The position numbers and the translations under genes are program-made. This document shows positions 10,055 through 61,155 of a DNA stretch of 64,000 nucleotides, one piece after another. The notes beneath the pieces were generated by a model that saw only the letters and a program-made list of their open reading frames with translations, did not search any database and was not told the origin of the DNA. Source of the stretch: Candidatus Falkowbacteria bacterium (lineage in GTDB: Bacteria > Patescibacteriota > Patescibacteriia > Patescibacteriales > Patescibacteriaceae); NCBI GenBank assembly GCA_903897785.1, contig CAIUCZ010000030.1:18212-82211 (forward strand). Direction: 5' to 3'. Position 1 is the stretch's first letter. Every line of letters starts with the position of its first letter.

Positions 10055-10175
10055 TTAATGCGAAAAATGCGAATTGGCATGCGAATACCACGAATTGAAA
10101 CCGCAAAAAATGCGAATTCGAATTCGCGGCTTTCGCTATGCAATTTGCGGTATTCGCATTAATTCGTGGATTCGC
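10055..10175. mobile_element. B-family CGAAT-word element (MITE/REP-like), forward copy
   Basis: ttaatgcgaaaaatgcgaatt ... gaattcgaattc (centre 10118-10129) ... ggtattcgcattaattcgtgg. Near-identical to 61023-61155. Confidence 0.8.
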
Positions 10176-10212
10176 CAGATAAAAAAGACCGTTCAAAATA
10201 ATTTGCAACGGT

Positions 10213-10458
10213 CTACTCTAATAATTTAAACAAAAAATACGCGGTGGCAACGGCAATGGCGATTGGCGCTAAATTTAAATAGCGCTCGCGGATAAACCAT
10301 TTGGTCAGCAGCGGCTCAAAAAAATTATACAAATCTTGTTGTTCGTAAGATTTTTTGCGTTCAACTAGAATTTTTTTGATGCCGGTTTGTGCCAGATAGA
10401 TAAAACTGATCAGGCCGGCGGCAAAACTACAACTGAAAATAAAAATTAATTTTAACAT
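10213..10458 (-). CDS. small hypothetical membrane protein
   Basis: Start moved to the ATG at 10458, which overlaps the upstream gene's TGA (TGATG). Reads MLKLIFIFSCSF... Confidence 0.45.
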   Translation of the reverse strand: MLKLIFIFSCSFAAGLISFIYLAQTGIKKILVERKKSYEQQDLYNFFEPLLTKWFIRERYLNLAPIAIAVATAYFLFKLLE

Positions 10459-10982
10459 CAGCGTCTCGGCGCAAAAAATAATAATCCGATAAGCAAAGAC
10501 CAAACGATAAAAATAATCGCCAGACTAAAGACAAAGGCATGGATCAGTTTGGCTTTGGTTTTTGGCCATTCGAGATGTTTCAAATCCCAAGCCGCATCGC
10601 TGTCAAAATTTTCTTTGCCGCACATAATTTCGGCCGCCAGCCGTTGATTTTTGCCAAACGACCGATTGAACAGCCAGAAAAAAAATAACAGCAAAAGCAT
10701 CAGTCCGACCAAACCGTAAACCAGCAATTCCGTTTGCCAAAAGTTGCCGAACAGCGGCGCGGCAAAAATCAATAACCAGCAAGCAAAAATCGCCAAACGA
10801 TTTTGTTTGATTGATCTTGGCAGCAGTTGAGCCATGTCGGTAAAAATATAGCCGGCACGATAAGATTTGCGAAAAGTCAAAAAATTCTTTAAGCTGTAAA
10901 ATAGCAAGATGGCACTAAATAACGCCAACAAGCCGGTGGCGATGAGCGGTAAAGCCAAACAGGCGGCAATCAGATTAATCAT
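10458..10982 (-). CDS. hypothetical membrane protein
   Basis: 174 aa with 4-5 hydrophobic helices; no recognisable family. Confidence 0.5.
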   Translation of the reverse strand: MINLIAACLALPLIATGLLALFSAILLFYSLKNFLTFRKSYRAGYIFTDMAQLLPRSIKQNRLAIFACWLLIFAAPLFGNFWQTELLVYGLVGLMLLLLFFFWLFNRSFGKNQRLAAEIMCGKENFDSDAAWDLKHLEWPKTKAKLIHAFVFSLAIIFIVWSLLIGLLFFAPRR

Positions 10983-11043
10983 GGTTAAGCTCCAAAATAG
11001 TTAACAAAAGAACTGCCTTGATTTTAGCCACAAAATTAAACAT

Positions 11044-11982
11044 ATGTCAATCAAGATTCAAGAACAAGTGCCTTTAGCCGGTCTGACCTCGTTTCAGGTC
11101 GGCGGCCCGGCCAGATATCTGGTCGAAGTCTCGACGCCCGATGAAGTTGATGAAGCTTTGCAATTTGCCAAAGAAAAAGCTTTGCCGATTTTTATTTTGG
11201 GCGGTGGCAGTAATTTGCTGGTCAGCGACAACGGTTTTACCGGTGTGGTCATCAAGCCGATCGCTCGAGAAGTTAAAATTGAAAATAATCAGATTGTCGC
11301 CGGCGCTGGCGTCGCCTTGGTGAAATTAGTTTTGGCGGCGGCCGAACATGGTTTCTCCGGCCTGGAGTGGGCGATGGGCATTCCGGGCACGATTGGCGGC
11401 GCGGTTTGCGGCAACGCCGGGGCTTATGGCTCATCAATTGATAAAAATGTATCACGCGTCACGGCGATTAATCTTGTTTCCGGAGAGATCAAAGATTTTT
11501 TGGTTGGTGAATGCGGCTTTGCTTATCGTTCCAGTTTTTTTAAACAAACTGGTGAGTGGTTGATCTGGCAAGCGGTATTGAATTTACAACCGGGTAAGCC
11601 AGAAGAAATTAAAGCTTTAGGCAAAAAATATTTGGACGATCGAATGAGCCATCAGCCAAAATTGCCGTCGGCCGGTTGCTTTTTTAAGAATTTTACCATG
11701 GAGCAATTAACCGCCACCAATCCGGAGCTGGTTAAACAAGAAGCGGTGCAAGGCGCGAGCAAGGGCGGCAAGCTGGGCTGTGGCTTTTTGCTGGAGCGGT
11801 TGGGCGTCAAAGGCATGCACGTCGGCGGCGCGACCGTCAGCCCACTGCATGCTAATTTTATTGTTAATGAAAATCATGCCACGGCCGAGGACATTAAAAC
11901 CCTGGCCGAAGAGATTAAGGCTAAAGCGCAAAAAGAATTAAGCGTAACGTTAGCGGAAGAAGTAAGAATGGTCGGATTTTAG
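11044..11982 (+). CDS. murB: UDP-N-acetylenolpyruvoylglucosamine reductase
   Basis: TSFQVGGPARYLVEV, ILGGGSNLLV, GIPGTIGGAV, and SAGCFFKN near the C-terminal domain. Confidence 0.93.
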   Translation: MSIKIQEQVPLAGLTSFQVGGPARYLVEVSTPDEVDEALQFAKEKALPIFILGGGSNLLVSDNGFTGVVIKPIAREVKIENNQIVAGAGVALVKLVLAAAEHGFSGLEWAMGIPGTIGGAVCGNAGAYGSSIDKNVSRVTAINLVSGEIKDFLVGECGFAYRSSFFKQTGEWLIWQAVLNLQPGKPEEIKALGKKYLDDRMSHQPKLPSAGCFFKNFTMEQLTATNPELVKQEAVQGASKGGKLGCGFLLERLGVKGMHVGGATVSPLHANFIVNENHATAEDIKTLAEEIKAKAQKELSVTLAEEVRMVGF

Positions 11983-12000
11983 AATGGAAGAAATAGTACG

Positions 12001-12068
12001 GTCATTCCCGCGTATGCGGGAATCTTTTTGCTATTACACCACGAGATTCCCGCATACGCGGGAATGAC
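12001..12068. repeat. A-family hairpin repeat
   Basis: gtcattcccgcgtatgcgggaatc / gattcccgcatacgcgggaatgac. Each arm is itself a palindrome. Confidence 0.85.
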
Positions 12069-12145
12069 GCTGATTTTTTCGATTGACCAACTCCGCACAA
12101 CCTGCTAAAGTATAATCAGTTTAGAAGAAACTAATCTTGTTTTTT

Positions 12146-13963
12146 ATGTCCAAAAAGAAAAAAAAGTGGTTGTATATCGGTGCGGCAATAATCATTGTGC
12201 TTGGCGCCTATTTTTGGTTAAAACCAAAGAAAACCGCGACTTATACGACAATGGCGGCCGCCCGCGGACCGCTGACCCAGACTGTCAGCGAAACCGGCAC
12301 GATCACGCCTTTGCATGAAATCGACCTTAATTTTCAAAACAGCGGCACCCTGGCCAAACTTGATGTCAAAGTGGGCGACAAAGTCAAAGCCGGACAGGTT
12401 TTGGCCGAGTTAAATTATTCCGGTTTGGCGATTCAGCGAGAGCAAGCCGCGGCGCAAGTGGCGGTCAGCCAGGCCGGTGCCGGCCAAGCGCAAGGCAATT
12501 ACGACACGGCCGTCAAAAATTTGGCCAAATTTAAATTAACAACCCAGCAAAATATCGATCAGCTCGCCAGAACGCTTGACGATTTAAACTCCAAAGACTC
12601 GGCGGCGCAAACCACGCAAGCGCAAAACATTGTCCAAGCGCAAACCGCTCTGGATAATTCTCAAAAAAACGGCCAAAACGCGATTGACGACGCGGCCGGT
12701 TCTTTGGCCACTGACCTGAATAACAAATTTCCGGTCGGTACCACGGCTTTGGATGCGATTAATAAACTATTAAACGACAACGGCGCAAAAAATAATTTGG
12801 GCGCTTTGGATGCCAGCAGTTTAAATCGTACAAATGATAATTATGGCGCGGCCAACAATGCCTTAACCAAAGCGTTAGTCGCGGTTTCCGCGGCTCAAGG
12901 CGCCAACGACAACGCGCAAATTGTCGCGGCCTATAATCAACTGCTCGATGCGCTCAATAAAACCTTGGTGGCACTTAACTCCAGCTATTATCTGTTGCAA
13001 AATTCCATTATTTCCAGTAGTTTTTCTCAAACTTCGCTTGACGGTTATAAAACCGGCATCAACGCGCAAATCTCTAGCGTGACCGTAGCCATTGCCGAAT
13101 TGCAAGGCAGGAAGCAAGCTTATGACGGCGCGGTTCTGGCTTTGAGTTCTAATGTGGCCGCCGCCCAGCAAGCTTTGACCCAAGCTCGGCTTGGTTTATC
13201 GACCAACGTTAAAAGCACGCAAGACGCGCTGACTGCTGCCAAATTGAGCCAGAGCCAGCAGTTAAACACGGCTCAAGGCCAGGTGGATGCCGCGGCTAAA
13301 GCGCTGGCCATTGCCAAAGCGCAAGTTTTATCCGCGCAAGTCGGCGTCGATGTCGTCAAAAATCAAATTAGCAATAGTTTATTGACCGCGCCTTTGGACG
13401 GCATTATCGCCAAATCAAATTACGAAATCGGCGAGCAGGTGACGGCTATGAACGCGGCCAAACCGATTTTTACTTTGGATACGACCAACGCTTATGAAAT
13501 CGATTTGGATGTGGCGGAAACCGATGTCAACAAAATTAAATTAAATCAAGAAGCCGATGTCACGTTTGACGCTTTTGGCAACAGCAAAACTTTCAAAGGC
13601 CAAGTTTATTTTATCGAACCGGCTTCGACGATTATTGCCGGCGTGACTTATTATCAAGTCAAAGTCAGTTTGACTGATGCCAATTTTGCCACCGCCGCTT
13701 CAACTACGGCCACGTCAACCGATTTAATTAAGCCGGGCATGACCGCCAATGTGGTGATTACCACCGCTCAAAAAGATAATGTTTTGGCCGTACCGTTGCG
13801 CGCCTTGATCGACAAGAGCGGTTCCAAATTTTTAAATTTATTGGTTAACGGCCGGAGTGTGGAAACGCCGGTCAGCGTCGGCATTAGCGGCGACAACGGC
13901 ATGGTGGAAATTTTATCAGGATTAAACGCTGGCGATAATGTGATCACCTTTACTTCGAATTAG
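12146..13963 (+). CDS. HlyD/MacA-family periplasmic adaptor (membrane fusion protein) with very long coiled coil
   Basis: N-terminal TM helix, lipoyl-like GDKVKAGQVLAEL and LTAPLDGIIAK, and about 300 aa of Q/A-rich coiled coil. ATG at 12146 preferred. Confidence 0.8.
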   Translation: MSKKKKKWLYIGAAIIIVLGAYFWLKPKKTATYTTMAAARGPLTQTVSETGTITPLHEIDLNFQNSGTLAKLDVKVGDKVKAGQVLAELNYSGLAIQREQAAAQVAVSQAGAGQAQGNYDTAVKNLAKFKLTTQQNIDQLARTLDDLNSKDSAAQTTQAQNIVQAQTALDNSQKNGQNAIDDAAGSLATDLNNKFPVGTTALDAINKLLNDNGAKNNLGALDASSLNRTNDNYGAANNALTKALVAVSAAQGANDNAQIVAAYNQLLDALNKTLVALNSSYYLLQNSIISSSFSQTSLDGYKTGINAQISSVTVAIAELQGRKQAYDGAVLALSSNVAAAQQALTQARLGLSTNVKSTQDALTAAKLSQSQQLNTAQGQVDAAAKALAIAKAQVLSAQVGVDVVKNQISNSLLTAPLDGIIAKSNYEIGEQVTAMNAAKPIFTLDTTNAYEIDLDVAETDVNKIKLNQEADVTFDAFGNSKTFKGQVYFIEPASTIIAGVTYYQVKVSLTDANFATAASTTATSTDLIKPGMTANVVITTAQKDNVLAVPLRALIDKSGSKFLNLLVNGRSVETPVSVGISGDNGMVEILSGLNAGDNVITFTSN

Positions 13964-13974
13964 CCTGCAAAGCA

Positions 13975-14001
13975 AAGAGACGCAAAATCTTGCGTCTCTA
14001 C
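13975..14001. repeat. H-family hairpin (GAGACGCA...TGCGTCTC)
   Basis: gagacgcaaaatcttgcgtctc; the same hairpin occurs at 49653-49676. No T-run; lies inside a presumed operon. Confidence 0.7.
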
Positions 14002-14007
14002 AAATCC

Positions 14008-14730
14008 ATGCCTCTCATTGAACTCAAAAATCTGGACAAAGAATACCGCAATGACGAAGTGGTCACCAAGGTGTTGTTTGATATTACTTTTTCCATTGGC
14101 AAAGGCGAGTTTGTCTCGATCATGGGTCCGTCCGGTTCGGGCAAATCAACCTTGATGCACATTTTGGGCTTTTTGGATCGCGCCACCGGCGGCAGTTATC
14201 ATTTTGAAGGCAAAAAAGTGGCCATGCTGTCCGATGACGAGCTGGCGCGCTTGCGCAATGAACAAATCGGTTTTGTCTTTCAAGCCTTTAATCTCTTGCC
14301 GCGCACCAGCGTCTTGGACAACGTCGCTTTACCTTTGACTTATGTGCGCAAATTGGAATGGCCGAGCATCAATGCCCGCGCCGAGCAAGTTCTGACCAGC
14401 GTTGGCCTGGGGCATCGTTTAAATTATTTTACTAATCAAATCTCCGGCGGCGAAAAACAGCGGGTGGCGATTGCCCGCGCTTTAGTCAATAATCCGGCGG
14501 TGATTTTTGCCGACGAGCCGACCGGCAACTTGGATTCGGTGTCCGGTGTCCAGGTGATGGAGATTTTACAAAAACTAAACGACGAAGGCCACACGATTAT
14601 TTTAGTGACGCATGAAACGTTTACTTCTGAATATGCCAAGCGCATTATTCATGTCAGAGACGGCCGAATTATCAGCGATGAGCCGGTCAAGCATCGAAGA
14701 GTGGCGAAGGATGGGCAAAAGTTGAAGTAG
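14008..14730 (+). CDS. MacB/LolD-type ABC transporter ATP-binding protein
   Basis: GPSGSGKST (Walker A), ISGGEKQRVAIARAL (signature), IFADEPTGNLD (Walker B), VTHE (H-loop). Confidence 0.93.
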   Translation: MPLIELKNLDKEYRNDEVVTKVLFDITFSIGKGEFVSIMGPSGSGKSTLMHILGFLDRATGGSYHFEGKKVAMLSDDELARLRNEQIGFVFQAFNLLPRTSVLDNVALPLTYVRKLEWPSINARAEQVLTSVGLGHRLNYFTNQISGGEKQRVAIARALVNNPAVIFADEPTGNLDSVSGVQVMEILQKLNDEGHTIILVTHETFTSEYAKRIIHVRDGRIISDEPVKHRRVAKDGQKLK

Positions 14731-14795
14731 AATCTGGAATTTAGAATTTGGAATTCGTATTTTCCAGATTCCAGATTCCAGATTCTAAATTCCAT
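14731..14795. repeat. C-family word hairpin (CTGGAAT / ATTCCAG)
   Basis: 14736-14754 pairs with 14775-14793 over 19 bp with one T:G position. It fills the whole ATPase-permease gap. Confidence 0.85.
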
Positions 14796-14797
14796 TT

Positions 14798-16057
14798 ATG
14801 ATGTCCCTCAATTATTACAAATCTCTAATCCTGGCGGCGTGGCGCGGCCTCCTAGCCAACAAACGCCGCAGTTTGCTGACCGCCTTGGGCGTGATTATCG
14901 GCGTGGCGGCCGTGGTGACGATTGTCGCCATCGGCAACGGGGCGCAAGCTTTGATTTTGTCCGAAGTGCAATCGTTCGGCTCCAATTTGATTGGCGTTTT
15001 GCCGGGCAAATCAGAAACCACCGGTCCGCCGGCGTCTGTGTTTGGCGTGACGATTACGACATTAACGACAGCCGATGCCGAAGCCATGGCCGACAAAAAA
15101 AATCTGCCGCACGTCAAATCGGTTGCGCCGTTTGCCCAAGGGGCCGGGACGCTCAACTGGCAAGGCGTCACGTATAGCACCAACCTGTCCGGCACCGGCG
15201 TCGATTATATTGCCACCGAAGGCGGCAATTTGGCGACCGGGCGTTGGTTCACGGCCGACGAAGACAGCGCGTTGGCGCGCGTGGTAATTTTGGGCGATAC
15301 GGCGCGGACACAGTTGTTTGGCAACAGCGATCCGCTGGGCCAGCAAATAAAAATCGGCAATGCTTTTTTTCAGGTGATCGGCACGATGCAAAAAAAAGGC
15401 AGTTCCGGCACGATGGATGTGGATGATCGCGTATTCTTGCCCGTTCAAACTATGCAAAAAATAATTTCCGGCACCAATTATCTGGGTTTGATTCATATGC
15501 AAGTCGATGACAGCAAAAATATCAACCAAACTATTACCGATTTAACAAACTTGTTGCGCGCTCGCCATAACATTACCGATCAATCCGGCAACAGCGATGA
15601 TTTTTCCGTGCGCAGCGGCGCTCAAGCGATTAGTATTTTAACGACGATTACCGACGCCTTGAAATATTTCTTGGCCGCCATGGCCGCTTTGTCGCTCTTG
15701 GTTGGCGGCATCGGCATTATGAATATCATGTTGATTCGCGTCACCGAACGCACCCGTGAAATCGGCTTGCGCAAAGCGGTCGGCGCGCGCTATCAAGACA
15801 TTTTGAGCCAATTTTTAACCGAAGCTACCGTCTTGACTTTGTCCGGCGGCGTCATCGGTATCATTGTCGGTATCGGCATGTCTTGGTTGGTGTCGGTGGT
15901 GGCGACTTACCTTGATTACACTTGGCCGTTGGTGATTTCAGCTTGGTCGATTGTCATTGCCGTAGCTGTTTCCACTTCCATCGGTTTAATTTTTGGTCTA
16001 TACCCGGCGCGCAAAGCCGCCAGATTGGATCCGATTGAAGCTTTACGTTATGAATAA
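14798..16057 (+). CDS. MacB-type ABC permease (FtsX domain + periplasmic domain)
   Basis: N-terminal TM helix, about 230-aa extracytoplasmic domain, then 3 C-terminal TM helices with GIGIMNIMLIRVTERTREIGLRKAVGA. Confidence 0.88.
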   Translation: MMSLNYYKSLILAAWRGLLANKRRSLLTALGVIIGVAAVVTIVAIGNGAQALILSEVQSFGSNLIGVLPGKSETTGPPASVFGVTITTLTTADAEAMADKKNLPHVKSVAPFAQGAGTLNWQGVTYSTNLSGTGVDYIATEGGNLATGRWFTADEDSALARVVILGDTARTQLFGNSDPLGQQIKIGNAFFQVIGTMQKKGSSGTMDVDDRVFLPVQTMQKIISGTNYLGLIHMQVDDSKNINQTITDLTNLLRARHNITDQSGNSDDFSVRSGAQAISILTTITDALKYFLAAMAALSLLVGGIGIMNIMLIRVTERTREIGLRKAVGARYQDILSQFLTEATVLTLSGGVIGIIVGIGMSWLVSVVATYLDYTWPLVISAWSIVIAVAVSTSIGLIFGLYPARKAARLDPIEALRYE

Positions 16058-17327
16058 ATTTTTTAAACCGATTTGGCATTATTTGCAAGGCTCGGTCCGC
16101 GCTCTGCGCGCCAACAAAACCAGAACGATGTTAACGATTCTGGGTATTGTGATCGGCATTGCCACGGTAATTATTGTTTATTCGGCCGGCGAGGGGACGA
16201 AGAGTTTGATCTTGAATCAAATCTCCAGCTTTGGTACGGATATTATTTCTATCCAAGTCAAAGTGCCTAACGGTTTGTCCGGTCAAGCCGGCCGTGCCAA
16301 ATCGGCAACGGCTCTGGCACAAGGCGTGCAGATCACCACCATGGGCTTGGGGGATCTGACGGCGATTAAAAAATTACCAAACGTTATCAACGCTTATGCC
16401 GCGGTCATCAATCAAGATCAAGTCAGTTATCAAAATCAACTGCGCCGCACTTTTTTGATGGGCACCAGCGCCAGCTATTTAGCAATCAATAAGACCCAAT
16501 TAGCGGAAGGTAATTGGTTTAGCGAGGATCAAGACCAAGGTTTTAACAATGTGGTGGTGCTTGGTTCGTCGATCGCTAATAAATTATTCGGCCAGGACGA
16601 TCCGTTGAATAAATACATCACCGTGCATCAACAGAAATTTTTGGTCATCGGCGTCTTAAAATCGGCCGGCGCCGTGGCGTTTATTAATTTTGATGATTTT
16701 TTATACGTGCCGGTGCGCACTTTGCAAAAAAAATTAATGGGCATCAATCATGTTTCGATGATGGTGGCCGAAGTGCAAACTATGGCCTTGGCTGATCAAA
16801 CCGCCGCCGATATCACGGCCACCTTGCGCGCGCGCCACAACATTGACGATCAGACCGGCGGCAAAGACGATTTTTCCGTGGTGACCATGGCCGAAGCCAT
16901 GAAAAATTTAGACACTATTACCAACGCCTTAACCTTTTTACTCTTGGGCATTGTCGCCATTTCTTTGGTGGTCGGCGGCGTCGGCATTATGAATATTATG
17001 TATGTCGCCGTCACCGAGCGCACGGCCGAGATCGGTTTGCGCAAAGCGGTCGGCGCCACTTATAGCGCCATTCTGACGCAATTTTTGGTGGAAGCGATTC
17101 TGATTACCGTTTTGGGTGGCATCATCGGCATTGCCGTCGGCATCGGCGTCTCATTTTTAATTTCTTTGGCCGCCCAGTGGTATGGCCTCGACTGGACTTT
17201 TGTTTTGCCGGCTCAAGGTTTTGCCGTGTCTTTGATTTTTTCTTTTGCCTGCGGCTTGGTCTTTGGCGTTTATCCGGCACGAACGGCGGCGCGGCTGGAC
17301 CCGGTGGAGGCATTGCGCAACGAATAA
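16050..17327 (+). CDS. second MacB-type ABC permease (paralogue)
   Basis: Same architecture, with GVGIMNIMYVAVTERTAEIGLRKAVGA. The ATG at 16050 overlaps the previous gene by 8 nt. Confidence 0.88.
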   Translation: MNKFFKPIWHYLQGSVRALRANKTRTMLTILGIVIGIATVIIVYSAGEGTKSLILNQISSFGTDIISIQVKVPNGLSGQAGRAKSATALAQGVQITTMGLGDLTAIKKLPNVINAYAAVINQDQVSYQNQLRRTFLMGTSASYLAINKTQLAEGNWFSEDQDQGFNNVVVLGSSIANKLFGQDDPLNKYITVHQQKFLVIGVLKSAGAVAFINFDDFLYVPVRTLQKKLMGINHVSMMVAEVQTMALADQTAADITATLRARHNIDDQTGGKDDFSVVTMAEAMKNLDTITNALTFLLLGIVAISLVVGGVGIMNIMYVAVTERTAEIGLRKAVGATYSAILTQFLVEAILITVLGGIIGIAVGIGVSFLISLAAQWYGLDWTFVLPAQGFAVSLIFSFACGLVFGVYPARTAARLDPVEALRNE

Positions 17328-20552: not shown

Positions 20553-20644
20553 TTAATTAACGCACGAAACTACGAATTTTATGCGAATACCGCAAATTAC
20601 ATAGCGAAAGCCACGAATTCGAATTCGCATTTTTCGCATTAATG
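20553..20644. mobile_element. B-family element, reverse-oriented partial copy
   Basis: tacgaattttatgcgaataccgcaaattacatagcgaaagccacgaattcgaattcgcatttttcgcattaatg. This is the reverse complement of the right half of 10055-10175 plus a short terminal arm. Confidence 0.8.
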
Positions 20645-28191: not shown

Positions 28192-28355
28192 CGCGCAAAA
28201 CTACGAATTATACGCGAATACCGCAAATTACATAGCGAAAAATGCGAATGAAACGCCGAAGGTCTAATCCTTAACAAACAATATTAGAGAATTCGCATTT
28301 TTTGCGGTTTCAATCCGTGGTATTTGCATGTTAATTCGCATTTTTTGCATTAATT
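28192..28355. mobile_element. B-family element, reverse orientation, with 40-nt central insert
   Basis: Reverse complement of the 10055/61023 element. It is interrupted exactly at the central GAATTC|GAATTC by gaaacgccgaaggtctaatccttaacaaacaatattagag (28250-28289). Confidence 0.8.
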
Positions 28356-28365
28356 AATTATTTTT

Positions 28366-29850
28366 ATGTCAGAACCAGAAAAAGTTCGCCTCAGATTAGC
28401 TCCCAGCCCCACCGGCTTCTTGCACATCGGTAATTTACGCACCGCTTTGTTTGGTTATTTGTTGGCAAAGTCTATGCATGGTGAATTTATCTTGCGCATT
28501 GAAGACACGGATGAAAAAAGAGAAGTCGAGGGTGCGGTCGACAGTCTGCTTAATGTTTTAACTTGGCTGGGCATTAATTTTGACGAAGGCCCGCATCTGG
28601 GCGGGGATTACGGCCCTTATATACAAACCCGGCGCCTGGATATTTATCAAAAAGAAATCCAAACGCTACTCGACAACCGTAAAGCCTACCGTTGTTTTTG
28701 CACGCCGGAACGTTTGACCGAGATGCGCGAAGAACAACAAAAAAATAAACAAGCGCCGCGTTATGATCGCCATTGCCGCAATCTGTCTGAAGATGAAGCG
28801 CAAGCCAAAATTAAGGCCGGCGAAAGTTTTGTTATTCGCCAAGCCATGCCGCTCGATGGTGTGGTGGAGGTTTATGATGAATTACGCGGGGCTATCAAAT
28901 TTCAAGCCGAAGACCTGGATGATCATGTCTTGATTAAAGCCAACGGCGTGCCGACTTATCAATTTGCCAGCGTCGTCGATGACCATTTGATGGAAATTTC
29001 TCATGTCACGCGCGGCGAAGAATGGCTGCCGTCTTTTCCGAAGAATATTTTATTGTATCAAGCTTTTGGCTGGATACTGCCCAAATTTATTCATCTGCCG
29101 TTGATCCTTAATAAAACCGGGGGCAAGCTGTCAAAACGCCAAGGCGATGTGTTTGTCGAAGACTATAAAACTAAAGGCTATCTGTCGGAAGCTTTAATTA
29201 ATTTTTGTGCTTTTTTAGGCTGGCATGGTAAAACCGATCAGGAAATTTTTAGCCTGGAAGAATTGGAAAAAGAATTTTCAATCGCCGGCATGGGCGCCAG
29301 TCCGGCCGTGTTTGATTTGGAGAAACTAAATTATTTGAACGGTTATTATATTCGCCAAATGTCGCCAGAGAATTTAGTTGACTTGGTTAAGCCATACCTA
29401 ACAGAGGCTATTGCCACCGCACCTTTCAATATTAGTGATGAATATTTAACCAAGATTATCAGTCTTGAACAAGAACGGCTAAAAGTTTTAGGCGAAATCA
29501 CGCAGGCGACTGCTTATTTCTTTGTTGACCAGTCGGAATACGAAGCACAGCTCTTGGTCTGGAAAAAATCAGACGCTGAAAAAACAAAAACTAATTTGCA
29601 AACTTTAGCTGATTACCTGGCGGTTTATTCTGGTGATTGGACCAAAGAAAATTTAGAAAGCTCTATTAAGCAATTAATCGCCGATCAGGGCGGTCAAGTC
29701 GGCGATTATCTTTGGCCGATGCGTGTCGCTTTGACCGGCCGCCAGTTTTCACCCGGACCGTTTGAAGTGGCGGCTGTCTTGGGGAAAGAAATAACTTTAA
29801 AAAGAATTAAAGGTGCAATTAATATTTTGAATCTGGAATCTGGAAGCTAG
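28366..29850 (+). CDS. gltX: glutamate--tRNA ligase
   Basis: RLAPSPTGFLHIGNLRTAL (HIGH) and KLSKRQG (KMSKS). The last residues NLESGS are encoded by the C-family repeat. Confidence 0.95.
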   Translation: MSEPEKVRLRLAPSPTGFLHIGNLRTALFGYLLAKSMHGEFILRIEDTDEKREVEGAVDSLLNVLTWLGINFDEGPHLGGDYGPYIQTRRLDIYQKEIQTLLDNRKAYRCFCTPERLTEMREEQQKNKQAPRYDRHCRNLSEDEAQAKIKAGESFVIRQAMPLDGVVEVYDELRGAIKFQAEDLDDHVLIKANGVPTYQFASVVDDHLMEISHVTRGEEWLPSFPKNILLYQAFGWILPKFIHLPLILNKTGGKLSKRQGDVFVEDYKTKGYLSEALINFCAFLGWHGKTDQEIFSLEELEKEFSIAGMGASPAVFDLEKLNYLNGYYIRQMSPENLVDLVKPYLTEAIATAPFNISDEYLTKIISLEQERLKVLGEITQATAYFFVDQSEYEAQLLVWKKSDAEKTKTNLQTLADYLAVYSGDWTKENLESSIKQLIADQGGQVGDYLWPMRVALTGRQFSPGPFEVAAVLGKEITLKRIKGAINILNLESGS

Positions 29851-34131: not shown

Positions 34132-34268
34132 ATTTGCGATAAATTTAATACGAATGTTACGAATTGTATCCGAATACTACGAATTGATTACGAATGTCGT
34201 GAATTTTATATTCGCATTTTTCGCGGTGCCATTCGCAGTATTCGCATACAATTCGTAGATTCGCATTA
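34132..34268. mobile_element. B-family-like CGAAT-word hairpin, degenerate copy
   Basis: aatacgaatgttacgaattgtatccgaatactacgaattgattacgaatg / attcgcatttttcgcggtgccattcgcagtattcgcatacaattcgtagattcgcatt. Confidence 0.7.
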
Positions 34269-51018: not shown

Positions 51019-51095
51019 ATTAATACGGATCTACGAATTACGTTGGACTTGCTTCTGCCAAGACAGAGGCAAACACTACGAAACTACGAATTTTT
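51019..51095. repeat. CGAAT/TACGAA-word segment between rpoA and rplQ
   Basis: attaatacggatctacgaattacg ... cactacgaaactacgaatttttaatta. Confidence 0.6.
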
Positions 51096-54013: not shown

Positions 54014-54021
54014 AATAAATA

Positions 54022-54085: not shown

Positions 54086-54097
54086 ATAACTTTAAAT

Positions 54098-54615: not shown

Positions 54616-54619
54616 CAAG

Positions 54620-54648: not shown

Positions 54649-54684
54649 GCTGTTAAATTTTCGTACCATTTTAGGAGACTTACC

Positions 54685-55014: not shown

Positions 55015-55058
55015 ACAAAACTAAACTTACAAAAGTCGGAAAATTAATCCGACTTTTT

Positions 55059-55277
55059 TTATTTTTTCGCAAAATCGTCTTCTGCCAAATTCGCTTGGCG
55101 CAAAATTGAGCGAAAAGTGCCATAAAGCACATCTTTGCCGTGAATCGGCACAATCACCGTTAACGTCTCGCCGTTTGTTTTTCTATATTTGGCATGCGAA
55201 CCGGTTTGAGAAATAAAAACAAAGCCCTTGCTTGCAAGGACTCTTATTACTAAACGCAGAGTATACGATTTAGGCAT
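55059..55277 (-). CDS. hicA: type II toxin HicA (mRNA interferase)
   Basis: LASKGFVFISQTGSHAKYRK ... VIVPIHGKDVLYGTFRSILRQA. The ATG at 55277 overlaps the hicB stop by 8 nt. Confidence 0.85.
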   Translation of the reverse strand: MPKSYTLRLVIRVLASKGFVFISQTGSHAKYRKTNGETLTVIVPIHGKDVLYGTFRSILRQANLAEDDFAKK

Positions 55278-55488
55278 ACTGCAAAGTGACCGAAGCAATC
55301 GCCGGTCTGGTTACCGCCGCTTTTTGCGGCAAGGGCATATCTTCGAAATACAAAGCCAAAGCATCTTGCAACATGGCCAGCGCCTCTTTTCTGGTTTTGC
55401 CAAAGCTGGAAACATCAACCGCCAAGCATTGGGCAATATAATGGTCGCCTTCTTTCCAAACAACTGATTTTAGATCTATTTTGCGCAT
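55270..55488 (-). CDS. hicB: HicB-family antitoxin (short form)
   Basis: VVWKEGDHYIAQCLAVDVSSFGKTRKEALAMLQDALALYFE. ATG at 55488; an alternative TTG start is at 55506. Confidence 0.8.
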   Translation of the reverse strand: MRKIDLKSVVWKEGDHYIAQCLAVDVSSFGKTRKEALAMLQDALALYFEDMPLPQKAAVTRPAIASVTLQYA

Positions 55489-55513
55489 AAAATTTAATTT
55501 GTTCAATTAAAAT

Positions 55514-55541
55514 ATTATAACACAAATAAAAAATAAATCAA
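55514..55541 (-). promoter_or_regulatory. sigma70-like promoter for hicBA
   Basis: Minus strand: TTGATT (55541-55536), 16-nt spacer, TATAAT (55519-55514). Confidence 0.4.
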
Positions 55542-55602
55542 CTCAAGACTACGGCAAAGCAAAATTTGTTATGAAAAACCCGCTATCAATCAAGATAACG
55601 GG

Positions 55603-56484
55603 TTACAAAGGTTTGTTTAAAACTTTGACCTTATTTTTACGGCGAATCACGGTGATTGCCTTGTTGATAGTGCGACGCACCCATTCCGAGGAAAAGCCAA
55701 GCCGATCACCAATTACTTGCAAAGGCACAATTTCAAAAAGCTCTTGATCCAGCAAATTAAAATGCATTTGCAAAACTTCTCGCTCCTTGTCGTAAAACGG
55801 CGACGCTAACGACCGCAGCAACTGTTGCAAAAGATCTTTTTTCTCCAGCTGCTCAACAAAGTTATCAGCCTCCGCATCAGCCAGAACGTCATGATAAGTA
55901 AAATCACGATTATCGCCGATAGCATCATCCAAGCTGTGAGTTAAATCAATCGCGCCAAACAGCACTTCAGCCACCTCCGTTTCTTCTTGCTTTAACTCGC
56001 TGGCCAAATCAACGATGCCGACAGCTCGACCAAGTTTTTGCTCCAAAGAGCTAAGCGCTTTTTGCGCTTTAAGCTGGCGCGTAATCAAAGCAAAGCTTTG
56101 ATGAATCTGGTAGCCTTTTTGCAGAACAAAGGCGATCAGTCGCCAATAGACCCGCAAATAAGCATAAAGCAAAAAATCTTTCGGCCGGCCGTCTTTACCC
56201 AAACGCGACGAAGAATATTTGTCAATCGCTTCAAAAAAGAACAAACAGCCCTCTTGAAACAAATCATCAACAGTAAAAGTGTTTTTTTCAAATCGCGCGC
56301 CAACTAAGCGAGCCAAGCGCCAAATCATAGTATAATGCGTTTCCAGCAAAATATTTCTGGCTTGCAGATCGCCGGCTTGCGCCAGGTCGATCAACCGGGC
56401 AACTTCCTCTTTAGGCAAAGGCGGAGTTTTATTGATATAATCCTCCATAATCTTACCGCGCGCGCTAGAAACAGCACGTTTCAT
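55603..56484 (-). CDS. sigma-70 family RNA polymerase sigma factor (alternative, group 3-like)
   Basis: AAGGAG RBS. Region 2 DDLFQEGCLFFFEAIDKY; region 4.2 HTH LQVIGDRLGFSSEWVRRTINKAI. Confidence 0.85.
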   Translation of the reverse strand: MKRAVSSARGKIMEDYINKTPPLPKEEVARLIDLAQAGDLQARNILLETHYTMIWRLARLVGARFEKNTFTVDDLFQEGCLFFFEAIDKYSSSRLGKDGRPKDFLLYAYLRVYWRLIAFVLQKGYQIHQSFALITRQLKAQKALSSLEQKLGRAVGIVDLASELKQEETEVAEVLFGAIDLTHSLDDAIGDNRDFTYHDVLADAEADNFVEQLEKKDLLQQLLRSLASPFYDKEREVLQMHFNLLDQELFEIVPLQVIGDRLGFSSEWVRRTINKAITVIRRKNKVKVLNKPL

Positions 56485-56557
56485 TGGTCACTCCTTAAAT
56501 TATGTAACGAACTGGCTATAGTTATAAAATAAAACGAAAAAAAATGCAAATTTAAAA

Positions 56558-56600
56558 CTGCCACAGTCCTCCGACTTGAAGTCGGAGAGACTACGGCAGG
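56558..56600. repeat. K-family hairpin
   Basis: ctgccacagtcctccgacttgaagtcggagagactacggcagg. Confidence 0.75.
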
Positions 56601-56626
56601 GCGGTGATTATTTTTGTGATTACTTT

Positions 56627-58435
56627 TTAGGACAAGGTTGCTTTTATTCGCCGCACCCCGGCGCTCGACGCTTCTTCTTTAATAATCTTAAAACTGCCCA
56701 GCTCACCGGTATTGCTGGCATGCGGGCCGCCGCAAATTTCGCAAGAGAACATCTTATCCCCCTGCCCGACCGTGTAAACTTTAACCATCTGACCGTACTT
56801 GGTATCAAACACCCCCATGGCCTGCATCGCTTTGGCTTCGGCTAATGGCATTTCTTGCACCGTGACCGGCAGTTCATCTTTGATGGCCTGATTAACCAAA
56901 CCTTCCACCTCTTTTATTTGCTCCGGCGTCATCTTGTCCGGATAGGAAAAATCCAAACGCAAACGCTCAACTGTAATATTTGATCCTTTCTGGAAAACGC
57001 CGTCGCCCAAAACTTTGCGCAAAGCCGCCAGCAACAAATGCACCGCGGTGTGTAATTTGGTTGTTGCTTCGGCATGATCAGCCAAACCGCCTTTGAACTT
57101 GCCGGCGGTTGCTGTGCGCGACAAATCTTTGTGCCGCTCCAATTCAGCCACAAAACCGGCTTCATCGACAATAATATCTTTTTCTTTGGCCAGCTCGCGG
57201 GTCAGTTCAATCGGAAAACCATAAGATTGATACAAATCAAACGCATCAACCCCGCTAATTTTTTTGTTGTTTAAAACTAAATTATTAAATCTTTGTTCGC
57301 CTGTTTGCAAGGTTTGCTTGAATTTTGTTTCTTCTTTGTTTAGTTCCGCCACAATTTTCGGCTGATTAGCGATTAGCTCCGGATAGACCTCACCCAATTG
57401 GTCAATAAAAATTTGGGCGATGGTCGAGCAAAAATTAATTTCTTGATTAATCCCCAGCTTTTTGGCCGCACGCATCGCTCGGCGAATCAAACGGCGCAAA
57501 ACATAGCCTTGATCTTTATTAGACGGCACAATCCCCTTTTGATCGCCAATCATGACGGTCGCGGCGCGCAAATGATCGGCAATGATACGAAAATCCGTCG
57601 CTTGATCTTTATATTTTTTGCCAGACAGCTCTTCTAATTTGGCAATGGCAAGATCGAATAAATCCGTTTGATAGATATCGGAAATGTTATTGATTGTACA
57701 AAGAGTTCGTTCCAAACCCATGCCGGTGTCCACGTTTTTTTGCTTGAGCGAAGCAAATGAACCGTCGGCTTGCTTGTCATAAGCCATAAAAACATTATTC
57801 CAAATCTCCACCCAGCGAGAATCAGCGTGCGTGGCTTGAAAATCTTCCGGCGCCGCTTCAGAGCCGCCTGCCCTGAGCGAAGTCGAAGGGGTCCAATAAA
57901 AAATTTCCGTGTCCGGTCCGCATGGCCCGGTTTGACCCGCCGGCCCCCACCAATTATCAGTTTTAGCCAACTTGGCGATGCGTTTATGAGACACGCCCGT
58001 TTCTAACCAAAAATTATAAGAGTCTTGGTCAAATTCAGCATCCTGATCACCGGCAAAAACTGAAAAAGCTAGCTTGGCTTTATCCAGATTCAAATAATCC
58101 GGGCTAGTCAAGAATTCCCAGCTCCAAGCAATCGATTCTTGTTTAAAATAATCACCCAAACTCCAATTGCCCAACATTTCAAAAAATGTCAGGTGCGTCA
58201 GATCGCCCACTTCATCAATATCGCCGGTACGAATGCATTTTTGCGCGCTGGCCAAACGATTGCCGGCAGGATGAGTTTGGCCGAGCAAATACGGCACCAA
58301 GGGATGCATGCCGGCAGTGGTAAACAAAACCGTCGGATCATTTTCCGGAATAATCGAAGCGCTGGGAATAATCGTGTGGCCGTGGGCGGCAAAGAAATCT
58401 AAGAATTTTTGCCTGATTTGCTTGGAATTTATCAT
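56627..58435 (-). CDS. alaS: alanine--tRNA ligase, short form (602 aa; catalytic + editing domains, no C-Ala domain)
   Basis: FFAAHGHTIIPSASI, FTTAGM and WGPAGQTGPCGPDTEIF. Editing-domain motifs HTAVHLLLAALR and CGGPHASNTGELG. Confidence 0.93.
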   Translation of the reverse strand: MINSKQIRQKFLDFFAAHGHTIIPSASIIPENDPTVLFTTAGMHPLVPYLLGQTHPAGNRLASAQKCIRTGDIDEVGDLTHLTFFEMLGNWSLGDYFKQESIAWSWEFLTSPDYLNLDKAKLAFSVFAGDQDAEFDQDSYNFWLETGVSHKRIAKLAKTDNWWGPAGQTGPCGPDTEIFYWTPSTSLRAGGSEAAPEDFQATHADSRWVEIWNNVFMAYDKQADGSFASLKQKNVDTGMGLERTLCTINNISDIYQTDLFDLAIAKLEELSGKKYKDQATDFRIIADHLRAATVMIGDQKGIVPSNKDQGYVLRRLIRRAMRAAKKLGINQEINFCSTIAQIFIDQLGEVYPELIANQPKIVAELNKEETKFKQTLQTGEQRFNNLVLNNKKISGVDAFDLYQSYGFPIELTRELAKEKDIIVDEAGFVAELERHKDLSRTATAGKFKGGLADHAEATTKLHTAVHLLLAALRKVLGDGVFQKGSNITVERLRLDFSYPDKMTPEQIKEVEGLVNQAIKDELPVTVQEMPLAEAKAMQAMGVFDTKYGQMVKVYTVGQGDKMFSCEICGGPHASNTGELGSFKIIKEEASSAGVRRIKATLS

Positions 58436-58490
58436 ATTTTTACAATTCTAATGAGTTTTCAGTATAATCGAGGTTAATTTTTTTAGCAAG

Positions 58491-59111
58491 CTAGCGGCCA
58501 GTATGTTTGCCAGCGGCTGCGGAAAATAACTTGATAATTCTTTTTTCCATCAAATCAACCAAAGCATAATAAGTCAACAGCCAAAAAATCATTTTTTGCG
58601 GTTGTTCCACAAACAAACCGGCGGCTGTACCGAAATTAAAGTTAAAATGCGCCGCACCCAAAGCCGGGATAGGCAGAATCGCCGCCGGCAAAGCGCAAGC
58701 CAATAATAACATCACCCGGGAAAAACCCAGCCAAATCGCAATTGTTATGGCTTGGTATTGATTGGTCTTGCGCGCGCTAAGCGCTCGGCCGATGATCGTC
58801 GCCAAAAAAATAAAAACTTGAGTCAATCCGCCATGCATCGCTACAAAAAATAAAAAAAATCCGTACAAAAGAAAAGCAAACAAAACTAAAAGTTTACTTC
58901 GAGACAAACTGACCAAGCCAAAACCGACCGAGGCGTGGCCAAACACAAACTCAAAGATAAAACACAGCATCATAAAACTGCCCAAATCGTGAAAGTCAAG
59001 ACTAACCACCAAGTTAGGCGCCAGCCAAATAGCCAAAAAAATCAAAGGCAGCAATAGGTCAGAAAAGAAAAACAGGCCGGCATCGCCGATGATCTGAAAA
59101 ACATCATCCAT
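58491..59111 (-). CDS. hypothetical polytopic membrane protein
   Basis: 206 aa with about 6 TM helices; no family recognised. Confidence 0.55.
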   Translation of the reverse strand: MDDVFQIIGDAGLFFFSDLLLPLIFLAIWLAPNLVVSLDFHDLGSFMMLCFIFEFVFGHASVGFGLVSLSRSKLLVLFAFLLYGFFLFFVAMHGGLTQVFIFLATIIGRALSARKTNQYQAITIAIWLGFSRVMLLLACALPAAILPIPALGAAHFNFNFGTAAGLFVEQPQKMIFWLLTYYALVDLMEKRIIKLFSAAAGKHTGR

Positions 59112-59209
59112 GGGTTTATTTTTAAAATTTATGACTATATCCTACCAAGTTTAAAGCTTTTGCGCAACTTGAAAAATCAACCAAAGCAATGTAGTATAAA
59201 AACTACCAA

Positions 59210-59228
59210 CCCCGCCTCATCGGCGGGC
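59210..59228. repeat. J-family small hairpin
   Basis: ccccgcctcatcggcgggc. Confidence 0.55.
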
Positions 59229-59254
59229 AAGCTACCATCCTACCCGCCTAGCCT

Positions 59255-60646
59255 ATGTCCGACAACAAGTCCGAGCTAAAACTGCCGCCACAAAACATTG
59301 AAGCCGAAATTTCCATTTTAGGTTGTTTATTGATCGATAAAGATGCCATCATTAAAATTGCCGACACCCTGCAGCCGGAAGATTTTTACAAAGACAGCCA
59401 CGGCCGGATTTATGAAGTGATCAAAGAGCTGTTCGCCAATCACGAACCGATTGATGTCTTGACTTTGACTTCGCGTCTGGAAGAAAAAGAATTACTGGCG
59501 CAAGTCGGCGGCCGGGCTTATATCACCGAACTGGCCTCTGCCGTCGCCTCTGCGGCTAATGTCGGCACTTACGCCGCCATGGTGCAAAAAAAAGCGACCC
59601 TGCGCCGCTTGATCAACGCCGCTACGGAAATCACGGAAATGGGCTATGACGAAGAAGAAGCGATTGACAAAGTCTTGGACTCATCCGAGCAAAAATTATT
59701 CGGCGTCTCACAAAAATATTTAAAACAAAATTTTACTTCCATCGCCAGCTTGTTAAACGAAGCCTTTGACCGCATCGACGATTTGCACAATCAAAGCGGC
59801 AAACTGCGCGGTATTTCCACCGGCTACCCCGATCTGGATAACTTGTTGGCCGGTTTGCAAAAATCTGACTTGATCATTCTGGCGGCTCGTCCGTCGGTCG
59901 GTAAAACTTCTTTGGCGATGGATTTGGCGCGGCAAGTGGCGGTCGTCGGCAAAGTGCCGGTTGGCGTCTTTTCTTTGGAAATGAGCAAAGAACAGTTGGT
60001 CGATCGCATGCTGTGCGCCCAGGCCGGCGTCAGTTTGTGGAAAATGCGCACCGGCAAATTATCCGATCAAGACGATGACGATGATTTTTCCCGCATCGGC
60101 CAAGCCATGGGCGCGCTGGCCGAAGCGCCAATTTATATCGATGACTCACCGGCCGCCAATGTCATGGAAATCCGCACCAAAGCCCGCCGCTTGCAAATGG
60201 AAAAAGGTTTGGGCTTGCTGGTGATCGACTACTTGCAGTTAATGGAAGGCCGCGGCAAATACAGCGACAACCGCGTGCAAGAAGTGTCGGAAATCTCTCG
60301 CGCCTTGAAAGGCATTGCTCGTGAATTGAACATTCCGGTCATCGCCCTGTCGCAGTTGTCTCGTGCCGTGGAGCAAACTCGTCCGGCTATTCCTCGGCTG
60401 GCGCACTTGCGCGAGTCCGGCTCCATTGAGCAAGATGCCGATATTGTTATGTTTTTGTACCGCAAAGCGGCTGACCGCGGCTACAACTTTGACGACCTGA
60501 CCGAAGAAGAAAAACATTCGGCCGAACTGCATATCGCCAAACACCGCAACGGCCCGATCGGCAAGATTGATTTGTTCTTTGATGAAAATACGGTCAGCTA
60601 TAAGAGCGTTCAGCGATATGATCGGGATGAACCGCCACAATTTTAG
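59255..60646 (+). CDS. dnaB: replicative DNA helicase
   Basis: PPQNIEAEISILGCLL, AARPSVGKTS (Walker A), LVIDYLQLM, ALSQLSRAVE, RESGSIEQDAD. Confidence 0.95.
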   Translation: MSDNKSELKLPPQNIEAEISILGCLLIDKDAIIKIADTLQPEDFYKDSHGRIYEVIKELFANHEPIDVLTLTSRLEEKELLAQVGGRAYITELASAVASAANVGTYAAMVQKKATLRRLINAATEITEMGYDEEEAIDKVLDSSEQKLFGVSQKYLKQNFTSIASLLNEAFDRIDDLHNQSGKLRGISTGYPDLDNLLAGLQKSDLIILAARPSVGKTSLAMDLARQVAVVGKVPVGVFSLEMSKEQLVDRMLCAQAGVSLWKMRTGKLSDQDDDDDFSRIGQAMGALAEAPIYIDDSPAANVMEIRTKARRLQMEKGLGLLVIDYLQLMEGRGKYSDNRVQEVSEISRALKGIARELNIPVIALSQLSRAVEQTRPAIPRLAHLRESGSIEQDADIVMFLYRKAADRGYNFDDLTEEEKHSAELHIAKHRNGPIGKIDLFFDENTVSYKSVQRYDRDEPPQF

Positions 60647-60678
60647 ACCTTGGATGTTGGATATTAGATATTGGATTT

Positions 60679-60720
60679 TTAACTTTATAAACCTTAAAAA
60701 CTTTATAACTTTTAACTTAT
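60679..60720. repeat. D-family word segment, single orientation
   Basis: ttaactttataaaccttaaaaactttataacttttaacttat. Confidence 0.65.
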
Positions 60721-60726
60721 AATTCT

Positions 60727-61017
60727 ATGTTCGAGAAACTTAAGCAATTGAAGGACCTGCGCTCTCAGGCCAAAACTATGCAATCGATGCTGGCTCAAGA
60801 AAAAATCACCGTGGATGAACACGGCATCAAGATTACCATGAACGGCAACATGGAAATTATCGAATTAATCATCGCCCCCGATGTGGCGCCGGAACGGATT
60901 GCCGGCTATGTCAAAGACTCGACCAACGAGATCATCAAAAAGACGCAAAAAGTTATGGCGCAAAAGATGCAAGAGATGGGCGGGCTGGGAGATCTTGGTG
61001 ATTTACTTAAAAAGTAA
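60727..61017 (+). CDS. ybaB: YbaB/EbfC family nucleoid-associated protein
   Basis: 96 aa; sits immediately upstream of recR, the conserved ybaB-recR pairing; QSMLAQEKITVDE...GNMEIIELII. Confidence 0.85.
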   Translation: MFEKLKQLKDLRSQAKTMQSMLAQEKITVDEHGIKITMNGNMEIIELIIAPDVAPERIAGYVKDSTNEIIKKTQKVMAQKMQEMGGLGDLGDLLKK

Positions 61018-61022
61018 ATTTC

Positions 61023-61155
61023 ATTAATGCAAAAAATGCGAATTAACATGCAAATACCACGAATGTAAACCGCAAAAAATGCGAATTCGAATTCGCGGTT
61101 TTCGTTATGTAATTTGCGGTATTCGCATGCAAATTCGCATTTTTCGCATTAATTA
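61023..61155. mobile_element. B-family element, forward copy, most complete
   Basis: attaatgcaaaaaatgcgaattaacatgcaaataccacgaatgtaaaccgcaaaaaatgcgaattcgaattcgcggttttcgttatgtaatttgcggtattcgcatgcaaattcgcatttttcgcattaat. Confidence 0.85.

Follow-up and report, generated by a model that had tools for sequence, protein, structure and literature searches.

The DNA analysed here (the window, 64,000 nucleotides (nt) in all) is C30:18212-82211, that is, part of contig C30 in the genome of a Candidatus Falkowbacteria bacterium (G000; 869 kb in 78 contigs, estimated 96% complete). Several of its intergenic gaps are filled by copies of a palindromic repeat, the CGAAT element, named for the short word from which its arms are built. 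We consider it probable, at roughly 60%, that CGAAT elements are the gene-less, non-autonomous members of a hairpin family associated with GxxExxY nucleases, akin in behaviour to MITEs (miniature transposable elements with inverted repeats), and that their arms are the cis-acting part. A previous reading of the window from its letters alone (the sequence-only reading) had called the repeat MITE- or REP-like (REP, repetitive extragenic palindrome). The dispersed behaviour of a non-autonomous mobile element holds up in our analysis; the identity with REP does not, as the element is ~135 nt long, against 20-40 nt for REP, and carries no GTAG/CGTC tag. Coordinates given below without a contig are those of the window.

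CGAAT-type arms enclose GxxExxY nuclease genes

An nhmmer profile made from five copies was run against the contigs of the genome, and its matches were merged to 41 loci on 25 contigs, in both orientations and with E-values from 1e-46 to 1e-3. Further copies, which the sequence-only reading had made a test of mobility, are thus present at about 40 loci. By eye, these divide into three subfamilies that differ in how the left arm starts: A (TTAATGCGAAAAATGCGAATT..., ~20 copies), B (ATAATGCGAATCTACGAATTGTATGCGAATACCGCGAAT..., ~12 copies) and C (AATACGAATACTACGAATTAGAATGCGAATACTACGAACGCTACGAA..., ~8 copies). The order of words is common to A, B and C, so the looser CGAAT-type "word hairpins" and the conserved element form one family seen at different depths. 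The centre of a family member is empty, or holds a module of 41-44 nt, or holds a nuclease gene of ~400 nt. Gene-less copies are in the large majority (~38, against 3 gene-bearing CGAAT hairpins).

The clearest gene-bearing member came from a search for arms without a local partner. On contig C62, the two halves of a B-type element lie 406 nt apart with a nuclease gene (C62:6632-7018) exactly at the centre, and its 128-residue product belongs to PF13366 (PDDEXK_3, 1.4e-18) and to TIGR04256, "GxxExxY protein". The genome has four PF13366 paralogues, all outside the window. The others are found inside a C-type CGAAT hairpin (C17:23893-24258), against a C-type arm at a contig end (C74:2-292) and inside a hairpin of ACAAAT words (C31:3362-3823). 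PF13366 nucleases are the only genes that CGAAT-family arms enclose.

This arrangement extends well beyond one genome. For comparison, we drew 40 genomes from the organism's own family and order, the nearest of them from other genera, and 12 of these contribute 24 more PF13366 genes. Inverted repeats bracket 19 of the 25 loci that could be assessed (three from this genome, 22 from relatives), while control windows in the same loci gave 0 of 100. In 17 of the 19, the brackets are the halves of a split hairpin, with cross-complementarity exceeding that of any local fold. The words in nuclease-flanking arms vary across the order (CGAAT/GCAAAT, ACAAAT, TCAAAT and TGTCAGAACC), and the protein tree largely groups the genes by arm type: its two genes with CGAAT arms found here form a cluster, at 99/99 support, with genes from relatives G030, G015, G032 and G036. 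G030 and G015 contain sequences 85-92% identical to the B-type terminus (TAATGCRAATCCRCAAATT), both beside PF13366 genes and at gene-less sites, and the PF13366 proteins of these two genomes are, by eye, ~60% identical to those found here. A 2012 survey listed the function of PF13366 as "Unknown" and reported multiple transfers of the family (PMC3424549). A sequence search of the PDB with the nuclease returned nothing useful, and we did not find a partnership of hairpin and GxxExxY gene in the published literature.

From these observations, we propose a lineage-specific palindromic insertion element, whose gene-bearing members carry a GxxExxY (PF13366/TIGR04256) gene of the PD-(D/E)XK type at the tip of the hairpin and whose arms would serve as cis-acting sites for propagation. 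The cognate nuclease may recognise the phased words when the DNA is folded into a hairpin or single-stranded, and may act in trans on gene-less copies, much as the REP-associated tyrosine transposase (RAYT) is taken to act on REPINs and the Ssn nuclease on NTS repeats. As a stronger statement, that the nuclease itself reads the CGAAT arms and drives or maintains the ~40 copies as one repeat-plus-enzyme system, this is a tentative idea that we hold to be rather unlikely. Most copies lie within strings of co-directional genes and hence are probably co-transcribed as RNA hairpins of ~60 bp, which could be substrates of RNase III; we would regard this as a side effect and not the reason for their existence.

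The arms form a conserved, paired hairpin

Alignment of the best copies gives a full-length A element as an imperfect palindrome of ~135 nt, with the consensus TMATTAATGCGAAAAATGCGAATT GGCA TGCGAATACCAC GAATTGAAACC GCAAAAAATGCGAATT up to the centre and CGAATTCGCGGCTTTCGC TATGTAATTT GCGGTATTCGCA TATA AATTCGCATTTTTCGCATTAATKA beyond it. Its outer 21 nt are perfect inverted repeats in full-length A copies (TTAATGCGAAAAATGCGAATT / AATTCGCATTTTTCGCATTAA), with A+T-rich termini that read TTAATG...CATTAA. Each arm is an array of five or six CGAAT-type words placed 9-12 nt apart, and the spacings between CG[AC]A word starts (9, 12, 9, 11 and 11 nt) are each about one helical turn. Five full-length A copies are 87-95% identical. 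The mismatches between the two arms are the same in every A copy, and the A copies therefore share one source. An asymmetry of the terminal trinucleotide (TCA versus TAA) was considered as a flip/flop or gene-direction signal and rejected, since the counts fit an independently polymorphic position.

Predicted folds are strong on both strands (about -50 to -80 kcal/mol), and the pairing is maintained by compensatory changes. The repeated words led RNAalifold to an off-register consensus fold, and we therefore scored the mirror-image pairing explicitly. Across the two gap-free stems of 16 copies that lack the module, pairing holds in 91.4% of cells, and in 6 of 20 pairs both partners have changed (GC to AU at 8:7, for instance, or UA to CG at 8:7); controls in which the partners were slid by 1-3 columns paired at just 22-50%. 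Left and right arms are 70-77% complementary within a subfamily and 58-69% between subfamilies. Even within subfamily A, the copy at C25:25603 has a doubly compensated change (ACACG/CGTGT for ATGCG/CGCAT).

Among the minor variants is a mini-insert of ~21 nt, CCTGTCCTCCGCGTAGGGGGA, that occurs only four times in the genome (C6:4555, C17:54056, C37:7812 and C76:2625). It always lies within a CGAAT element at GGTATTCGCA^TACAATTCG; in three of the four cases this is in the right arm, and in the fourth at the mirror position in the left.

Evidence for insertion and copying

Syntenic comparison, which had been suggested with the sequence-only reading, was made at two junctions, and at both the gap in most relatives is 1-20 nt. 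Between ybaB and recR, the gap of 145 nt is here the element itself. Among the 22 relatives that keep this gene pair, 15 have gaps of 3-20 nt, and the other seven carry unrelated insertions, including hairpins of other words in G030, G006 and G028. The gap between mreB and a glycosyltransferase gene is 100 nt here and 1-5 nt in 12 of 21 relatives, with unrelated hairpins of 88-210 nt in a further eight. Narrow junctions of this kind have thus been filled more than once, and independently, in other genera. Word hairpins of relatives at the two test junctions are L014 (G030), L028 and L088 (G006), L033 (G028), L084 (G015) and L096 (G032), and their words include ACGCATAAC, AAGTCTCAAGTT, ACAAATG and AAATCCAAAATCC. 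PF13366 genes are present in 7 of 12 genomes with a hairpin at either junction and in 0 of 11 without (p=0.0046, kinship ignored).

The copies at C5:5539 and C39:13522 have an arm deletion and module variants in common, yet their match (95%) is limited to 136 nt and the flanks are unrelated. Their alignment marks them as a derived variant that has propagated to two unlinked loci. The A form was not found in the 40 related genomes. A search of genome and metagenome collections with the 21-nt terminus gave exact matches only in a Cytophagales metagenome-assembled genome and a sediment contig, which we set aside as isolated chance matches with no element around them. Taken together, the short gaps in relatives, the propagated variant and the restriction to one lineage show insertion and copying, as opposed to spacers that evolved in place. 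For several copies, the stop codon of the upstream gene lies inside the TAA/TGA-rich terminus, according to gene calls that are crude picks of open reading frames (ORFs).

The sequence-only reading had pointed to TA or TTAA as possible flanking duplications. In 24 copies, we found no target-site duplication of at least 3 nt beyond the shuffled expectation; the sole signal comes from palindromic dinucleotides within the termini. Any duplication of TA or TTAA would be masked, because it would look the same as the palindromic terminal inverted repeat (TIR).

A central module drifts between the arms

A module of 41-44 nt stands at the exact centre of 14 copies from subfamilies A and B, in a constant orientation relative to the arms, and was found nowhere else in the genome. 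The copy on contig C29 retains a 22-nt remnant of it. The sequence-only reading had noticed one such module, as an unrelated insert of 40 nt at the symmetry point of the copy at 28192-28355; the position is right, whereas the insert (41 nt, 28250-28290) is a recurrent feature, ~60% identical to the other modules. When seven A copies of the long form are compared, identity is 90-94% in the arms and 60% in the modules, the latter barely exceeding the 55 ± 6% of shuffled sequence, and by eye the conservation of the module is confined to its last ~12 nt (CTTTGGNATTT). Within two recent sub-clusters of copies (C28/C5/C39 and C76/C14/C25), the modules are 88-95% alike. The arms have thus stayed fixed while the module drifted, which indicates that the lineages of the element are long persistent. 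A contrast of this kind between conserved arms and a drifting loop is expected if the arms are the cis-acting part, and arms acting as sites for propagation would account for the 90-94% against the ~60%.

Two functions for the module were considered and rejected. As a general promoter (its hexamers resemble TTGACR...TAAACT), it fails on orientation, which in a hand tally is split about 7 to 7 relative to the downstream gene, and on a variable spacer. As the relic of a deleted nuclease cassette, it fails because it resembles the loops of cassettes neither in this genome nor in its relatives.

Gene context and candidate partners

The copies sit among genes much as intergenic gaps in general do. 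Of the 34 copies that can be classified, 28 lie between co-directional genes, 3 between convergent and 3 between divergent ones (82/9/9%, against 74/13/13% for the genome), and their orientation relative to flanking genes is balanced (13 forward, 15 reverse). Such a background-like context and balanced orientation argue against a directional role as terminator or promoter. Nor is the element an intrinsic terminator as a whole: the full hairpin has no T-run, operon ends are not enriched for copies, and three copies lie between divergent genes. The only match to a terminator pattern is an inner mini-hairpin of 7 bp, GCGAATTCGAATTCGC, at the centre, with a T run behind it on either strand. A preference for one RNA strand was rejected, as now one strand and now the other has the lower fold energy across copies and orientation stands at 13 to 15.

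Structured gaps are common throughout the genome. Among intergenic gaps of 60-250 nt, 187 of 364 (51%) fold below -0.25 kcal/mol per nt, against 20 (5%) once shuffled. Counted by word, ~50 gaps are of AAAGTT type, 37 of CGAAT type, 15 of GGAAT type and 8 of ACAAAT type. The median co-directional gap is 113 nt here; at the two tested junctions, most relatives have 1-20 nt.

Searches for a transposase partner covered the DDE_3 and Y1 families. The IS630-type DDE_3 domain has no match in the genome, by which we rejected an IS630-type parent, and these searches placed no transposase between matching element ends; A-type end pairs enclose no ORF at all. Two RAYT/Y1 genes are present, each between repeats of another family. 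One is a RAYT of 193 amino acids (C44:17285-17866, NF047646, 80.6 bits) between arrays of GTCATAGTC...GACTATGAC repeats (whole locus C44:17100-17910); the other is a Y1-type gene of 220 amino acids (C65:627-1289) flanked by GTAGAGACGCA...TGCGTCTCTAC repeats (whole locus C65:570-1290). Both carry repeats unlike the CGAAT element, which leads us to reject RAYT as its mobiliser, and the transposase or RAYT with matching ends that the sequence-only reading had proposed to look for did not appear. Both loci are REPtron-like, and in the C65 gene the GTAGAGACGCA...TGCGTCTCTAC repeat falls within the gene's own reading frame, where it is translated twice as VETHCNASL. The whole window has no match in Rfam 15 at gathering score.

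Weighing the explanations

Several points count against placing the CGAAT elements with the GxxExxY nucleases. No A-type copy encloses a gene, and the connection between A copies and nucleases runs through the homology of A, B and C arms. The central module has no similarity to the cassette loops, and the one indirect pointer to recognition of the arms by the nuclease is that the protein clades largely track arm type. The correlation between PF13366 genes and junction hairpins comes from few genomes and ignores kinship. On the side of mobility, the target-site duplication of at least 3 nt is missing, movement is suggested by sequence comparison with no event observed, the comparison is limited to other genera, and an exact-protein look-up with YbaB found no record elsewhere. 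Finally, conservation of the arms could instead come from host selection or gene conversion, and two copies (C30:28264 and C12:1093) are mosaics in which the left arm is A-type and the right end B-like.

Selection by the host is developed most naturally as an intercistronic hairpin that serves as an RNA or DNA processing site, a 3' stabiliser, a weak bidirectional terminator or an insulator, and is kept alike by selection plus gene conversion; the nuclease gene would then be cargo that stem cleavage frees from operon transcripts, as in the intervening sequences of 23S rRNA. Such a role would suit the 28 of 34 co-directional copies lying 3-21 nt from start or stop codons, the fold energies of either strand (-50 to -80 kcal/mol), the compensatory changes with arms far better conserved than the loop, the strong structure of 51% of 60-250-nt gaps against 5% shuffled, and the central GCGAATTCGAATTCGC mini-hairpin with its T run on both strands. 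However, copies follow the genome background, with neither enrichment at operon ends nor exclusion from divergent promoter regions, show no orientation bias (13 forward, 15 reverse) and lack a U-tract after the full hairpin; the same junctions are 1-20 nt in most relatives, and the spread of identical sequences to ~40 loci is left unexplained. We judge this explanation unlikely, if one to be kept in mind. Still less do we favour a classical MITE, in which the element is a deletion derivative of a DDE insertion sequence (TA- or TTAA-targeting, say) whose partner is missing from the assembly or lost, with the nucleases as later passengers. The perfect 21-nt TIRs with TTAATG...CATTAA ends, which would conceal any duplication of a palindromic TA or TTAA, fit this well, as do the long, short and internally deleted forms, the 41 dispersed loci and the presence/absence differences between genomes. 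Two contigs, C6 and C44, terminate within copies (C6:1-67 and C44:1-45), and repeat-rich contigs with a transposase could be absent from the assembly. Yet DDE_3 (IS630) has no match in the genome among the two transposase families searched, no A-type end pair surrounds any ORF, and what the family's arms do enclose is PF13366 nucleases only, order-wide and with clades tracking arm type. As for hairpins that evolved locally as terminator-like structures and are alike only through a shared short word, the genome does have several families of word hairpins, and the sequence at 51019-51095 shares little with the element beyond CGAA words. The alignments already contradict this explanation for the element, with 87-95% identity over ~135 nt that includes the conserved arm-to-arm mismatches, profile E-values down to 1e-46 and ancestrally tiny junctions, and we give it next to no weight.

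Relation to known repeat systems

In form, the CGAAT element most resembles the Correia (CREE/NEMIS) elements of Neisseria and the ERIC elements of enterobacteria. These too are imperfect palindromes of 100-160 bp with terminal inverted repeats (PMC2649163, PMC2229807, PMC10969869), and occur between genes in either orientation, with copy numbers from dozens to hundreds. Many of their copies lie in transcription units near start or stop codons; a central segment distinguishes the long form from the short one, neither CREE nor ERIC has a known transposase, and their transcripts fold into long hairpins. CREE is reported to bind RNase III, which either cleaves or protects it (PMC2649163). There is no sequence similarity, however: CGAAT arms are phased arrays of 5-8-nt words, while theirs are unique sequence. 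The CGAAT element also lacks a demonstrable TA duplication, and its host is a Patescibacteria genome of 0.87 Mb. We know of no CREE or ERIC members with a nuclease gene at the tip.

The proposed relation between repeat and enzyme has closer parallels elsewhere. As with REP/REPIN and RAYT, many gene-less palindromes occur beside a few that flank, in inverted arrangement, the gene of a small single-domain DNA-cleaving enzyme, the type of repeat co-varies with the enzyme clade, and there is no target duplication, here none of at least 3 nt (PMC3116915, PMC3733652, PMC6006769). The enzymes differ (PD-(D/E)XK of PF13366 here, HUH-Y1 in RAYT), as do the repeats, ~135 nt of phased words here and a 20-40-nt stem-loop tagged with GTAG/CGTC in REP. 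The nearest described system is that of Ssn and its NTS/SRM repeats, in which the gene of a small nuclease, standing alone, has on either side a repeat that also exists as hundreds of gene-less copies (PMC11893778). Ssn is a GIY-YIG nuclease that cuts single-stranded DNA close to the repeat it is associated with, and its homologues differ in specificity (PMC11893778). It differs from the GxxExxY system in fold and in its short hairpin repeats, and its demonstrated role is the modulation of natural transformation and not the spread of repeats; its cutting has been shown biochemically, whereas the GxxExxY system is known here from genes alone. An arrangement that resembles the published Ssn/NTS system is present in this genome at C1:799-1216, where a 97-residue GIY-YIG-like gene (MRAHDYYIYIMASKTGVLYIGVTNNL...; no match in NCBIfam) lies between two GTCATCCCGAG...CTCGGGATGAC hairpin repeats.

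Intervening sequences of 23S rRNA are stems that carry small ORFs for four-helix bundles. The likeness is a small ORF (TIGR02436, four-helix bundle) in the loop of a long stem; the difference is that CGAAT elements lie between protein-coding genes and are mostly gene-less. The genome has a TIGR02436 gene of its own (C78:1364-1735) between inverted arms of AAGTTAAAAGTT words (C78:1244-1907), a second small-protein family nested in a word hairpin, with another type of word. TIGR02436 is the family to which the proteins of 23S rRNA intervening sequences belong.

If the nuclease does act on these repeats, then the system would be a third partnership of repeat and enzyme beside RAYT/REPIN and Ssn/NTS, built on a minimal restriction-fold nuclease of ~125 residues. 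Were the enzyme to bind or cut its own arms, this would add a new fold to the few repeat-plus-nuclease systems, and it could also provide nucleases specific for a sequence or structure, the property for which Ssn proteins are useful. The 0.87-Mb genome would then be a compact test case, since its arms come in three subfamilies and each of its several nuclease paralogues has a word of its own. Through its link to hairpins, the CGAAT family is in any event a lead on PF13366. Although the genomes of Patescibacteria count among the most reduced known, long hairpins that most relatives lack fill roughly half of the mid-sized gaps in this one, so that inserted palindromes in large number are tolerated, or put to use, by such genomes. 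The elements also matter for annotation: they lie 3-21 nt from start or stop codons and in some cases provide the stop codon itself, they interrupt assemblies, and they give rise to spurious ORFs.

Copies of the element in the window

The window contains four clear copies, one diverged relative and one doubtful remnant. The best is a full-length short-form A copy at 61021-61155 (forward strand; nhmmer 145.7 bits, fold -51.6 kcal/mol), which occupies the entire ybaB-recR gap. A second short-form A copy at 10053-10179 (forward strand; 128 bits, C30:28264-28382) lies between a convergent gene pair and begins 5 nt past the stop codon of a Mur ligase; its left terminus is the canonical TTAATGCGAAAAATGCGAATT, and its variant right end, AATTCGTGGATTCGCCAG, also occurs at C12:1093. 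The likeness of these two copies, seen in the sequence-only reading at 10055-10175 and 61023-61155, amounts to 88-90% identity over 120 nt. The copy at 10053-10179 and that at C12:1093-1253 both join an A-type left arm to a B-like right end (AATTCGTRGATTCGCCAG), which suggests recombination or gene conversion between subfamilies.

The other two clear copies are on the reverse strand, and their earlier description as reverse-oriented was borne out. The long-form A copy at 28192-28355 (97.5 bits, C30:46404-46566) reads directly as the reverse complement of the same element, fills the gap upstream of gltX, ends on the right in the variant ...TTTTGCGCGATA and has its 41-nt module (28250-28290, reverse strand) at the hairpin tip. 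The A copy at 20553-20644 (64 bits, C30:38766-38848) occupies the gap between MreB and the glycosyltransferase; it is partial, its inner left arm having gone with a deletion between two AAAAATGCGAATT direct repeats of the left arm, so that the terminal word abuts the centre.

Of two sequences that the sequence-only reading took for degenerate relatives, the one placed at 34132-34268 is a true member of another subfamily, a B copy (ATAATGCGAATCTACGAATTGTATGCGAATAC...) with bounds at 34145-34268 (reverse strand; 47.5 bits, C30:52356-52479; RNA fold -54 kcal/mol) in the gap between the SerRS gene and the gene before it. The other, 51019-51095 (forward strand, rpoA-rplQ gap), was not recovered by the element profile at E<1e-3 and is at best a doubtful remnant: by eye its first ~25 nt resemble a B terminus (TTAATACGGATCTACGAATTACG), and the remainder consists of CGAA words in the same orientation that form no hairpin.

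The flanking genes are as previously named (Mur ligase, MreB, GltX, SerRS, YbaB and RecR), and the copies do fill their intergenic gaps, nearly every side ending 3-21 nt from the adjacent stop or start codon; the exception is the side of the 10053 copy that faces its convergent neighbour. At 28355-28368, 61155-61165 and C30:102522-102530, the start codon lies 4-12 nt from the hairpin base or within the TTAATGA terminus itself, leaving no space for an unpaired Shine-Dalgarno sequence.

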